The notes below the pieces were generated by a model. The model did no database searches and was not told the origin of the DNA. It saw nothing but the letters and a program-made list of their open reading frames with translations. DNA of 64,000 nt from a virus: positions 64,001-128,000 of the IMG/VR virus record IMGVR_UViG_3300010354_000045; one strand, 5' to 3'. Shown here one piece after another: positions 41,585-45,362 of the stretch (positions are counted from its first letter, which is position 1; each line of letters opens with the position of its first letter). Position numbers and translations under genes: made by a program.

Positions 41585-42435
41585 TAAGTGCCCCATTCAT
41601 TTTTAAATAACGGAACTTGCAATCTATCACTATATCTAAGTCCGTATTTCATAGCAAGTTCTGCTACTTTTCTATTATTCATACTGTACACACTTTCAAC
41701 ACCGCCAACGGGCATAATATAGATATTGCCTTTAAATCCGTGTCTTCGATAAATGTCTACAACTTCTAAAACTTCGTCAGCATCTTCATTAGAAGCAATT
41801 ACAAATTTTAAGTAAGTATGTCCAAGTTTTTCATATTGGCAAACTACATCAGGACGAATTGCATCTTCTCTACTTTCACCACTTACACTTAATTTTGCAC
41901 TAACGCTAAATGTTAGTGAGTTGTGACCTCTTTGTTCAATGCCCCAATTGTAAAGATAATTTCGAAAATCTTTTGATATTTCTTGGGTACCGTTAGTTTC
42001 AAAAGTTATTTCTTTAAGATTCTTCATCTTAGGGTGTTCTAGTAAATCAGGATAGTTTCTTTGCCAACCTAACAATGGCTCACCTCCTGTGATAACTAAA
42101 TGTTCGTCTCGCCATTCTTTGTATGGGAGCATTTCGCAGATACTCTCTGCAATGCTGTCTGTTGTAAGTACTGGTGAAAGGTCTTTGAACCTAGGATCCC
42201 AACTAGCATAAGAATCGCAACCGGTATGAACAAGAGGTAAATCTCTATATTGTTTAAACTCTCCAATACGTTCTGCAATAACGTGTCGTTCATTTGATTT
42301 TTCTCCTCTAGGCAGACCAAATCCGTCACAGGTAAAATTACATCCAAACACACGTAAGAAAACGGAAGGTACACCCATATACCTTCCTTCACCTTGTATG
42401 CTATAAAATAATTCTGCTACTTTTAGTTTACTCAT
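41584..42435 (-). CDS. queE: 7-carboxy-7-deazaguanine synthase (radical SAM)
   Basis: ELFYSIQGEG, FLRVFGCNFTC...CDS, ITGGEPL, FETNGT, RLQV..F. Confidence 0.92.
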   Translation of the reverse strand: MSKLKVAELFYSIQGEGRYMGVPSVFLRVFGCNFTCDGFGLPRGEKSNERHVIAERIGEFKQYRDLPLVHTGCDSYASWDPRFKDLSPVLTTDSIAESICEMLPYKEWRDEHLVITGGEPLLGWQRNYPDLLEHPKMKNLKEITFETNGTQEISKDFRNYLYNWGIEQRGHNSLTFSVSAKLSVSGESREDAIRPDVVCQYEKLGHTYLKFVIASNEDADEVLEVVDIYRRHGFKGNIYIMPVGGVESVYSMNNRKVAELAMKYGLRYSDRLQVPLFKNEWGT

Positions 42436-42694
42436 AAATTTTTGACCATATTTTTAGTTTATCTTGTTTCTTTTGACTAGCTTGCTGTAATTCTTCCTTG
42501 GTAAAAACACCATGATCTATTAACAGGTTAATCATTAGCATAACATCACCCGCTTCTTGCGTAAGATGCTGTCTTTGAGAGCCACCATCTTTGTAGCTAT
42601 TATCTAGACCAAAACGGCGCACTTTACTAGCAGATACTATTAGCTCTCCGCATTCTTCTTGTAAGATATCAAGTATTTCCTGAATCTTTGACAT
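42428..42694 (-). CDS. mazG: MazG-like NTP pyrophosphohydrolase
   Basis: QEECGEL...QEAGDV (ExxE...ExxD). Confidence 0.75.
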   Translation of the reverse strand: MSKIQEILDILQEECGELIVSASKVRRFGLDNSYKDGGSQRQHLTQEAGDVMLMINLLIDHGVFTKEELQQASQKKQDKLKIWSKIYE

Positions 42695-43022
42695 TTTGTT
42701 TCCTAAGTTCTTCTACGTCTTTGACAGCTGATTGTAACACAGTTGCATAGTTAAGAGCAACCTGTTTATTCATAATAATACAAGTTTCAAAATCAGTATA
42801 TCCTTTGGTTAGCAGCTTCCAAATGTGTAACCAACGATTCTTTGACCAGAAATTAGTCCTAGTTGTAGTATAAACGGTTACAGTAACACCTATGTCTTCT
42901 GCTTCAATATCAATAGTATGTGTGCAGTCATCACTACCGCATTCGCATACGGCCTTGTACATCTTTGATGTACCCCAATCTTTAACTAGTAAAACTCCGT
43001 TTGCTGGTTTTTGTGGTTTCAT
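42669..43022 (-). CDS. Hypothetical protein ([10 protein letters not shown] possible metal site)
   Basis: Coupled ORF. Confidence 0.5.
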
Positions 43023-44038
43023 TTTAAAAATACATCGTTAATTTGTCTATTGACTCTAACAAATGTTGTACATTTTGGTAATTGTTTGAGTGTAGGTGCT
43101 CCGACATATGTACAGGTACTGCGTAGGCCACCAAGAATATCTAAAACAGTATTTTTCACAGTACCTCTATATGGAATTTCTACAGTGCGACCTTCTGATG
43201 AACGATATTCCGCAACACCGCCGTGGTGTTTATTCATAGCAGTGTCAGAACTCATACCATAAAATGTAACTTTGCCATCTTTGACTTCGCCGCCGCCTTC
43301 ATCGTGTCCAGCTAACATGCCGCCTAACATTACAAAGTCTGCGCCAGCACCAAATGCCTTAGCTACATCTCCAGGACAAGTACAACCGCCGTCAGCAATG
43401 ATGTGTCCGCCAAGACCATGAGCGGCATCGGCACATTCGATAATTGCGGATAGTTGCGGATAGCCAACACCTGTCTGTACACGAGTAGTGCAAACAGCAC
43501 CAGGCCCAATACCAACTTTAACAATATCTGCTCCACGTAAGATTAACTCCTGTGTCATGTCTGCGGTAACGACGTTACCAGCAATAATAGTGCAATGAGG
43601 AAATGTTTCTCTAACCTTTTGAACAAAATCAGCGAATCGTTCTTGGTAACCATTAGCTACATCAATACAGATAAAACGTATTTCTGGATACACATTAATA
43701 AGTTGGCGTAATTTTAAAAATTCACTATCACTGGTGCCGGTGCTAACTGCAAAATAGTTTCCGCCAATATCTTGAATAGTTGTTTGAAAATATTCTATAC
43801 CAATGTTTTTTACTAAACAAGTAAACATACGATGCTGATATAAGGCATGAGCCATTTGTAGTGTGCCTACACCATCCATATTACTAGCCATAATAGGAAC
43901 CCCATGCCATTCAAATCTGCTGTATTTGAATGTATAATGCCTTACAAGATCTACTTCTTTACGACTACCTAATGTACTGCGCTTAGGACGAATAAGTACA
44001 TCCTTATAATCTAATTTAATTTCGTCTTCAATTCTCAT
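43019..44038 (-). CDS. guaC: GMP reductase (enterobacterial/type 1 style)
   Basis: [59 protein letters not shown]; no CBS domains. Start set at the ATG overlapping the upstream stop. Confidence 0.93.
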
Positions 44039-44622
44039 TGTTCCCACCATGCTTCATAGGGAAATTCTACCCACACATCATTCTCTGCCTTGTTGACTTC
44101 CATGCCAACAAAGTCCATACCTACTCGACATTTACTAGCTAAGTTATCAACGAGAACTGCAAATTTTACATTATTATTCCAAACATGTTCCCATTCAGGA
44201 TCATTTGGTAAACAACTACTAGGCCAGTCATTCATAATCCAGTTGAAGGTAGCACCTGTGTCATTAATGTCATCAACGACGAGAATGTTTTTAAAATTTT
44301 CGCCTTGTTCTAACAGACTCGATGCGGCATCTAATACTGAACCAATATCGTTTTCATCTTCAATATGAATTTCTTGTTTAGGATAGCCTAGCGCATCTTC
44401 AGCCATACTGCAATCACTGACACACTCACCGCCGTCACGCAGACTAACTTGTAAAGGCTTCATAGGAATATTTAGATAATGACTAATCATAACAGCTGGA
44501 ATAAGGCCGCCACGACTAATACCTACAATATAATCTGGCCGCCAGCCGCTATTAGCAATATCTCTACAAATTTTAGAAACTAATTTTTTTAGTTCTCTAT
44601 CTTTAAGAATTAATTTATTCAT
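44035..44622 (-). CDS. Purine phosphoribosyltransferase (Gpt/XGPRT-like)
   Basis: [16 protein letters not shown] motif [19 protein letters not shown]. Confidence 0.85.
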
Positions 44623-45362
44623 CTCGGAGCAAACTCTTGTTGTAGTTTAATGTTATCGAAAAACTCTTTTTTAGTACCGGCATCTTCTTTAAACGCACCT
44701 CTTAACACAGTTGTTTGTGTTAGGCTCGAATGTGCCATGATACCACGATTTTCACAGCAGCCATGTACTGCCTGAATGTAAACCCCTAGGTCTTTAGTTC
44801 CTGTGGCTTTTTGGATCTGCCTAGCAATTTCATTAGCAAGCTCCTCCTGGAGAGTGCCTCGCCTGGCACACCACTGGGCAATCCTTGTATACTTTGAAAG
44901 CCCAATAAGATGTTGGGCAGCAATAATACCAATATAAGCAACGCCAACCACAGGTTGGTGATGATGGCTACACATACTACGAAGCTCACTACGAACAACA
45001 AGCATGCCTTCGTAACGGTCCTCCGAATCATTAGGAAACGATGTTGAGTCTGGTGCTGGGTCATATCTTCCTGCCATTACTTCATTAAAATACATCTTAG
45101 CCAGCCTTCGAGCTGTGCCTTTTGAATTAGGATCTGTTTCTCTATCAATTAACAGCCGATCAAGTACTAGTTCAAATGCTTCTGCGGCTTCGTCGATTAA
45201 TTGGTCTTTAAATTCTTCAGTAACATACTCACTGATATTATCTCCAGCCCAGAATCTTTTTCCATCTCTCTTCATTTTAAAGCGAAGATAATCTCCAAGA
45301 TATGCTTCTTTGTAGCCACCGTCGCCGGCCATGGCATCAAGTGCTGTTTCTTTCTGTGTCAT
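44619..45362 (-). CDS. folE: GTP cyclohydrolase I
   Basis: TARRLAKMY, SMCSHHHQP, GLSKYTR, LQEEL, HGCCENRG. Confidence 0.95.
   Translation of the reverse strand: MTQKETALDAMAGDGGYKEAYLGDYLRFKMKRDGKRFWAGDNISEYVTEEFKDQLIDEAAEAFELVLDRLLIDRETDPNSKGTARRLAKMYFNEVMAGRYDPAPDSTSFPNDSEDRYEGMLVVRSELRSMCSHHHQPVVGVAYIGIIAAQHLIGLSKYTRIAQWCARRGTLQEELANEIARQIQKATGTKDLGVYIQAVHGCCENRGIMAHSSLTQTTVLRGAFKEDAGTKKEFFDNIKLQQEFAPR

Follow-up and report, generated by a model that had tools for sequence, protein, structure and literature searches.

The 64,000-nt stretch of viral DNA analysed here (hereafter the window) spans bases 64001-128000 of a 161,493-bp record, IMG/VR IMGVR_UViG_3300010354_000045, with a CheckV completeness of 43%. 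The record is a fragment of a myovirus-type jumbo phage with 36.7% G+C, and its structural and replication genes resemble those of T4 and PA5oct. The minus strand of the window carries an unbroken chain of overlapping open reading frames (ORFs) for a GTP cyclohydrolase I (FolE), a Gpt-like phosphoribosyltransferase (PRT), a GMP reductase (GuaC), a 117-aa protein (p117), a small MazG-like protein (MazG88), a QueE-like radical SAM enzyme, a further protein (p153), and a 5'-3' exonuclease, in that order. Sequence comparison suggests that the chain makes up the downstream half of a 7-deazaguanine DNA-modification system of the DpdL type. Systems of this kind are known; the PRT is a component new to the literature searched. 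A megablast search of window positions 41500-45500 against GenBank phages returned no match.

FolE (44619..45362, minus strand, as are all genes of the chain) is recognised by PF01227 (E 3.9e-38) and phrog_2197 (E 1.1e-43), scores under the NCBIfam equivalog cut-offs, and would catalyse the opening step that takes GTP toward 7-deazaguanines. ATGA-type overlaps join FolE to the PRT (44035..44622), the PRT to GuaC (43019..44050), GuaC to p117 (42669..43022), and p153 (41135-41596) to the exonuclease (40152-41138; PF02739, E 1.3e-19), the PRT/GuaC overlap being of this type if GuaC starts at 44038. The overlap between p117 and MazG88 (42428..42694) is 26 nt, and that between MazG88 and QueE (41584..42435) is 8 nt. 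QueE, a putative 7-carboxy-7-deazaguanine synthase, is matched by phrog_2076 (E 9.4e-54); it reaches 27.8 bits with PF04055 (cut-off 29.5) and matches the NCBIfam QueE models, also under their cut-offs. No Pfam (E up to 10 included), PHROG, or NCBIfam match was found for p117, and an atlas search returned only viral hypothetical proteins. An earlier sequence-only reading of this DNA had proposed a coupled operon of folE, PRT, guaC, mazG, and queE at 42428..45362 behind one promoter. All five genes lie where it had placed them and the coupling is borne out by the overlaps, but its list lacked the sixth ORF, p117, and its boundaries are too narrow, since the chain goes past QueE into p153 and the exonuclease. 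The order QueE-p153-exonuclease is maintained in relatives and in the Pseudomonas jumbo phage PA5oct.

The predicted promoter also has a counterpart in the sequence. A sigma70-like candidate, TTGACA-18-TATACT (45382..45411, minus strand), followed by an AGGAGA ribosome-binding site, lies in the region 20 nt 5' of the FolE start. The candidate is a consensus match only, at 11 of 12 positions, and is one of just two 11/12 sites in a scan of 14.5 kb, in which promoter-like sites as a class are no commoner than chance (61 seen against 52.8 +/- 8.4 in shuffles). The other 11/12 site, TTGACT-17-TATAAT (52269-52297, minus strand), stands upstream of the block made up of p247, p68b, and the DpdA-like gene described below. 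The pair suggests two promoters, one for each half of the modification system.

The PRT is a type I purine PRT by its PF00156 score (41.3 bits against a cut-off of 26.3). A profile of its family matches 1VDM, a PRT of Pyrococcus horikoshii (E 3e-19), and E. coli XGPRT (about 1e-8). The best Foldseek matches of its AlphaFold2 model (pLDDT 87.1) are likewise purine PRTs, namely 1VDM (E 3.9e-10), Sulfolobus HGXPRT, and E. coli XPRT, with the Sulfolobus adenine PRT 4TRB also among the neighbours. With E. coli Gpt (XGPRT) and the archaeal small PRTs it has in common its fold, an RGG loop, VDDxxDTGxT as the PRPP motif, and W-I/V-x-F/Y-P-W/Y-E near the C terminus. Residues V116, D117, D118, D121, G123, and T125 of the VDDxxDxGxT motif are invariant. 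The third Asp of DDxxDxG in 6-oxopurine PRTs acts on the purine N7, and the Asp of the motif is invariant here in 9/9 divergent and 20/20 close homologues.

Unlike E. coli Gpt and the archaeal enzymes, the window PRT lies in a deazaguanine-synthesis context and has two insertions. The first, which the sequence-only reading had pointed out, is real: an acidic segment of about 26-30 aa, roughly residues 80-110, ahead of the phosphoribosyl pyrophosphate (PRPP) motif. From the RGG loop to the VDD motif the window PRT is about 26 residues longer than 1VDM, 8 of residues 82-110 are Asp or Glu whereas 1 is Lys, and the segment is predicted to be helical in the AlphaFold2 model. A second insertion follows the PRPP motif. 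Residues ~80-110 are missing or shortened in the related loci L025-L027 and in the phages PA5oct, BUCT-ZZ01, and immuto, which weakens the candidacy of the acidic insertion as a specificity determinant; being clade-specific and dispensable among relatives, it is weak evidence for an altered specificity of the PRT.

The lasting result concerns the genomic company that the PRT keeps. By tblastn, PRT homologues occur in 17 GenBank phage records belonging to four lineages, and one record per lineage was opened. In each of the four the PRT lies few genes from FolE or QueE, and QueD is present in 4/4. The order is DpdA-like, GT363, DpdL, ..., PRT, QueE in PA5oct; QueE, PRT, one other gene, QueD, FolE, with DpdL 3 kb further, in Synechococcus phage BUCT-ZZ01; QueD, QueE, ..., PRT, FolE, ..., DpdA in Flavobacterium phage immuto; and ribonucleotide reductase, dNMP kinase, FolE, PRT in Brevundimonas phage MaInes. 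The PRT and the DpdA-like gene are about 2.4 kb apart in 11/11 Pseudomonas records. With the window's own clade included, five phage lineages have the PRT within or next to their genes for deazaguanine synthesis. The genome backbones of the four GenBank lineages appear unrelated, so inheritance alone would not explain this adjacency. No published discussion of the link was found in the literature searched: the word 'phosphoribosyl' is absent from Cui et al. 2023 (PMC10516641) and Hutinet et al. 2019, and a jumbo-phage survey mentions PRTases just for NAD and Ter systems and notes a deazaguanine system in PA5oct.

Two samples of related IMG/VR loci give the distribution of the remaining genes. 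One comprises 16 loci conditioned on the PRT (58-87% identity) and the other the 80 best among 598 or more matches to DpdL, a protein encoded upstream of the chain; in this second sample a gene was called present at tblastn E <= 1e-6 with half or more of the query covered (>= 50%). Of the 80 DpdL loci, 36 hold DpdL together with the downstream exonuclease and were kept, while 44 with a truncated span were set aside. Across these 36 spans, QueE and the glycosyltransferase-like GT363 are universal (36/36 each), and FolE (35/36), the cupin-like p177 (34/36), and the PRT (33/36) are nearly so; p117 is found in 11/36, MazG in 2/36, and GuaC in 1/36. Among all 80 DpdL loci, p174 is present in 76 and a TGT/DpdA-like gene in 71. 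In the PRT-conditioned sample, GuaC occurs in 3/16 loci (L012, L013, L022), MazG88 in 2/16 (L025, L026), and p117 in 0/16. FolE and the PRT are adjacent in none of the 33 loci that hold both, p177 adjoins the PRT, often overlapping it, in 20/31 related loci, L067 has the order FolE-p117-MazG-QueE with the PRT elsewhere, and L088 has GuaC without the PRT. Gene order varies and the region is highly mosaic, and judged from these sequences the gene order of the window is idiosyncratic, put together from mobile pieces. The integrated five-gene guanine-draining module of the sequence-only reading does not survive these counts, and the generic MazG family and canonical GuaC described below undercut it further.

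A neighbour of the PRT that the window lacks is a HIT-family nucleotide hydrolase or transferase, which matches PF01230 (E about 1e-9) and retains two of the triad histidines, the second and the third. It lies near the PRT in 16/16 PRT-conditioned loci, often immediately after it (for example L012:9674-10072, L014:8564-8974, L025:5649-6032, and L027:9022-9420), and is present in 21/36 of the DpdL-conditioned loci. It is absent from the window's record, where p117 and MazG occupy that position.

GuaC itself appears fully canonical. It exceeds the cut-offs of NF003470 (547.8 bits against 397) and TIGR01305 (532.7 against 492.15), matches PF00478 (E 1.3e-69), is 62% identical to Salmonella GuaC, and aligns end to end with human GMPR2 (2A7R, E 2.2e-139). 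The catalytic Cys loop (GIGPG.VCTTR) and the GMP-binding segments (YGMSS and AEYR.SEG) are conserved; no active-site change relative to human GMPR2 and no hint of altered specificity can be seen. Homologues are 339 aa long, so the likely true start is the fifth codon, ATG 44038. Its third-position G+C (0.247) is like that of the neighbouring genes, and a large protein collection holds 120 or more clusters that are at least 79% identical to it, some of them on contigs as long as 364 kb, which together mark GuaC as an established gene of a sublineage and no fresh capture. As a marker of deazaguanine phages GuaC was rejected, since the two phage GuaC contexts examined (Cr30 and XacN1, out of 42 records) have no annotated deazaguanine genes nearby.

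MazG88, an 88-aa protein, is assigned as a small MazG-like NTP pyrophosphohydrolase by phrog_4856 (E 4.2e-21). Its PF03819 score of 20.1 bits does not reach the cut-off of 22, and its translation shows the acidic EExxE...ExxD motif. Members of the family occur in 112 phage records, mainly of T4-like enterobacterial phages and of Caulobacter and Rhodobacter phages; the family is thus common among phages with no known deazaguanine, and in BUCT-ZZ01 its member sits far from the deazaguanine cluster. MazG88 is probably a generic phage nucleotide-pool enzyme. Kinship with the MazG of the phiST cluster was considered and rejected (BLASTP E 19). The record further encodes a larger, second MazG-like protein (phrog_671), a NUDIX hydrolase, and a T4-type deoxynucleoside monophosphate kinase (L008:12620-12997, L004:17086-17535, and L004:12978-13625).

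The upstream half of the putative system lies 3-6 kb from the chain in the same orientation and includes DpdL and a protein with a TGT/DpdA-like fold. DpdL (p130; 48618..49010, minus strand), a proposed decarboxylase of 7-carboxy-7-deazaguanine (CDG) that would yield 7-deazaguanine, carries the motif LxxxHRHxF, which in the available text of Cui et al. (2023; PMC10516641) is the DpdL signature replacing the CxxxHGH of QueD. The motif is present in 8/8 aligned sequences, as H[RF]H. Homologues include phiST CGPG_00067 (tblastn E 2e-9) and a protein of ACP17 (E 5e-36), and according to the same text these are the phages whose dpdL was expressed (PMC10516641). With its 598 or more IMG/VR matches, the DpdL family reaches a very abundant clade of uncultured jumbo phages.

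The 517-aa protein (DpdA517; 49768..51321, minus strand) is a putative DNA transglycosylase by its fold and by the LGDSGGFQ motif, which is invariant. Its AlphaFold2 model is weak (pLDDT 55.5, pTM 0.63); in Foldseek, DpdA 7UI4 comes first (E 2.5e-4) and every structure at ranks 2-50 is a TGT, with low TM-scores of 0.23-0.34. It is 34% identical to PA5oct EST35_0316. No Pfam match was found at E up to 10, PF01702 included. That model matched 0/5 phage records, ACP17 and immuto among them, and since it misses immuto's annotated DpdA it is uninformative here. Profile alignments by hhalign were not significant (E 0.4 with ACP17 gp123, with the motifs aligned, and 0.33 with immuto DpdA), and the sequence profile gave only chance matches to PDB sequences.

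Searches of the 43%-complete record found neither QueD nor QueC. This negative says little: the record is incomplete, close relatives carry QueD and a weakly QueC-like gene, and the last 237 bases of the record match the QueD-flanking gene of a relative; absence of QueD and QueC from the phage was accordingly rejected as an inference. The closest GuaC-bearing relatives (G001 and G002) encode a QueD (60 bits with PF01242) as well as a PP-loop protein of 196 aa that matches QueC weakly (30.2 bits with PF06508), at L033:1078-1668 and L030:1462-1968, tens of kb from the cluster. QueC together with DpdL would be unexpected for a phage of the 2'-deoxy-7-deazaguanine (dDG) type.

In the current model, phage 7-deazaguanines are inserted into DNA after replication by the DpdA transglycosylase, and such modifications protect the DNA against restriction enzymes and, for one phage examined in vitro, against Cas9. 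The recurrence of a purine PRT in these clusters, often next to a HIT-family gene and in the window next to GuaC and MazG, suggests that the pathway has a nucleotide-level side so far overlooked. The PRT may be either part of a guanine-recycling loop that makes large-scale base replacement affordable or the entry to a true pre-replicative route. The explanation that we favour, and hold tentatively, is the first: that the PRT salvages the guanine expelled by DpdA, with GuaC as an optional outlet from the GMP so formed to IMP. It is essentially the conservative option of the sequence-only reading.

From enzyme class and gene context we infer the following substrates and fluxes. FolE, a QueD that is probably encoded off the record, and QueE would convert GTP to CDG, DpdL would decarboxylate CDG to 7-deazaguanine, and DpdA517 would exchange this base into DNA, freeing guanine. 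Each deazaguanine inserted would thus cost one GTP and expel one guanine. With PRPP, the PRT would turn the freed guanine into GMP, refilling the GTP used by FolE, and the same capture would clear guanine as a competitor for the transglycosylase. GuaC, whose translational coupling to the PRT is confined to this sublineage, may shunt part of the GMP to IMP and on to AMP, a diversion that would serve a genome of 63% A+T.

Several observations fit this salvage role. The purine-PRT class of the enzyme and its invariant Asp agree with it; its near-core but dispensable status (33/36) suits an accessory function; and the retention of a DpdA-like gene is also in keeping with salvage. In a 2025 preprint, as far as its available text goes, PA5oct DNA resists several restriction enzymes, and the authors read this as modified G in GA/GG motifs. 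Resistance limited to motifs fits insertion that is enzyme-directed and post-replicative.

Other observations weigh against salvage. The PRT falls well under the NCBIfam equivalog cut-offs for the xanthine enzyme (PRK09177, 37.9 against 138) and the hypoxanthine-guanine enzyme (PRK09162, 21.6 against 181), and in the model its acidic insertion appears to occupy the site of the flexible catalytic loop of type I PRTs. Hosts normally encode a Gpt or Hpt of their own. GuaC would drain GMP that FolE ultimately needs, so that draining opposes recycling, and plain guanine salvage needs no HIT neighbour; the HIT and MazG genes beside the PRT are left unexplained by it. The upstream chemistry is itself provisional, DpdL being only a proposed decarboxylase whose heterologous validation failed, according to the portion of Cui et al. 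consulted (PMC10516641).

The strongest competing explanation, which we consider less likely than salvage but live, is a route resembling tubercidin biosynthesis, in which the PRT uses PRPP to ribosylate CDG or 7-deazaguanine, phosphorylation and reduction turn the product into 7-deaza-dGTP, and a polymerase incorporates it alongside DpdA. GuaC would then act like TubD on 7-deaza-GMP or lower competing GMP, and MazG or the HIT-family protein would trim nucleotide pools. In its fuller form, with a pre-replicative 7-deaza-dGTP route parallel to DpdA and a TubD-like GuaC, where present, leading to 7-deaza-IMP and 7-deaza-AMP, the proposal seems to us slightly less likely still. 7-Deaza-dGTP is a good polymerase substrate, and the neighbours of the PRT (GuaC, MazG, HIT) are all nucleotide-level enzymes. 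The sub-threshold XPRT and HGPRT scores and the enlarged loop region also suit this route, and a 7-amido-7-deazaguanine (ADG) nucleoside was detected in phage CP220-infected cells, as the available text of Cui et al. states (PMC10516641).

The combination of FolE, QueE, DpdL, PRT, GMP reductase, and NTP/NMP hydrolase mirrors the tubercidin cluster. That cluster offers a published precedent, uncited in the sequence-only reading, for the bolder inference of that reading that the PRT ribosylates a deazaguanine. According to the accessible part of the source (PMC6112128), TubE of Streptomyces tubercidicus works as a PRPP transferase specific for CDG; TubD, a homologue of GMP reductase, deaminates the 7-deaza-GMP analogue but takes GMP too; and TubG belongs to the Nudix hydrolases. 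The tubercidin and toyocamycin clusters (TubE/ToyH, TubD/ToyE) thus combine the same classes, GTP cyclohydrolase I, QueE, decarboxylase, PRPP transferase, GMP reductase, and nucleotide hydrolase, and the window PRT resembles TubE/ToyH in being encoded with a CDG/preQ0 pathway. The likeness is one of enzyme classes. As far as the sources describe them, those clusters make free nucleoside antibiotics, have no transglycosylase, and use a UbiD-type decarboxylase, and in contrast to TubD/ToyE the window GuaC stands near housekeeping GuaC.

Several points count against ribosylation of a deazaguanine. The N7-serving Asp of the PRT is invariant although a 7-deaza base has no N7. A TGT/DpdA-like gene is kept in 71/80 DpdL loci with DSGGFQ invariant, the PRT is missing from 3/36 complete spans, GuaC and MazG are as rare as given above, GuaC has an unchanged active site, and the MazG family is generic. 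The motif-limited resistance of PA5oct, as reported in the available preprint text, speaks in the same direction. No ribonucleotide reductase was seen in the 161-kb record, a weak point given its 43% completeness. In the available text, Cui et al. conclude that all such modifications are post-replicative (PMC10516641), and polymerase entry of some deazaguanine, if true, would contradict that conclusion.

The Z-genome phages, on whose analogy the sequence-only reading had drawn, pair the synthesis of a non-canonical purine nucleotide with the hydrolysis of canonical dNTPs (PurZ/MazZ/DatZ). To our knowledge they use no base-exchange enzyme. The window differs from them in having a putative one, and it holds no PurZ or DatZ homologue and no identified G-specific dNTPase.

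It is also doubtful that the PRT, GuaC, and MazG are merely unrelated auxiliary purine-pool genes in the early/replication block of a large AT-rich phage, with no tie to modification: the Cr30 and XacN1 contexts of GuaC, the wide spread of the MazG family among T4-like phages, the mosaic gene order, and the PRT-free GuaC of L088 all speak for this, but all four GenBank lineages, on backbones that appear unrelated, keep the PRT inside or beside FolE/QueE/QueD genes, and it is present in 33/36 DpdL-to-exonuclease spans, so that the idea fits GuaC and MazG and not the five-lineage association of the PRT.

Among described phages, the closest kind of system is that of phiST and ACP17, which, in the available text of PMC10516641, shares with the window FolE, QueE, a DpdL with LxxxHRHxF, and a distant TGT/DpdA-like protein. 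As in those systems, no QueC was found in the record and the genes adjoin DNA polymerase and replication genes. The phiST cluster also holds a MazG-like gene, unrelated to the window's small MazG. Unlike phiST and ACP17, the window has a putative transglycosylase of 517 aa whose sequence could not be matched to gp123 of ACP17 or DpdA3 of immuto, and it adds the Gpt-like PRT, GuaC, the different small MazG, GT363, p174, and p177. PA5oct (Wroclawvirus) has a syntenic module, with identities to the window of 34% (DpdA-like), 42% (GT363), 60% (DpdL), 29% (PRT), 30% (QueE), 52% (exonuclease), and 51% (DNA polymerase), together with a p153 homologue; modified G is suspected there from the restriction resistance described in the available preprint text. 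Its block is without GuaC, MazG88, and FolE, and its PRT has 144 aa and no insertion.

Between the chain and DpdL, the block of p177, p126, and GT363 (46494..48385, minus strand) holds near-core companions of the module. The cupin-like p177 (46494-47027) matches phrog_4786, 'cysteine dioxygenase' (E 1.8e-40), and GT363 (47294-48385) is a possible GT-B glycosyltransferase, an atlas lead only. On the other side of DpdL lies the conserved p174 (49007..49531, minus strand), which has no family match and an ACP17 homologue (E 8.5e-14). Pfam searches at E up to 10 gave nothing useful for p130, p174, p177, or GT363. Homologues of GT363 and p174 adjoin DpdL in ACP17, and one of GT363 does so in PA5oct. 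Because both proteins accompany DpdL, the final DNA base may be more elaborate than 7-deazaguanine, and a role for them may explain why dpdL and dpdA alone failed in E. coli. Sugar-nucleotide genes (UDP-glucose dehydrogenase-like, cytidylyltransferase-like, and HldE-like) are scattered round the replication block, at window positions 52294-53070 and 61255-62271 and at L008:12035-12499 of the genome; they are possible sources of a donor for GT363.

Away from the modification genes, the record holds two giant ORFs of 4599 aa (window 3156-16955, plus strand) and 4011 aa (genome C1:146923-158958, minus strand), and the ORFs that flank the former match baseplate and tail-fibre PHROGs.

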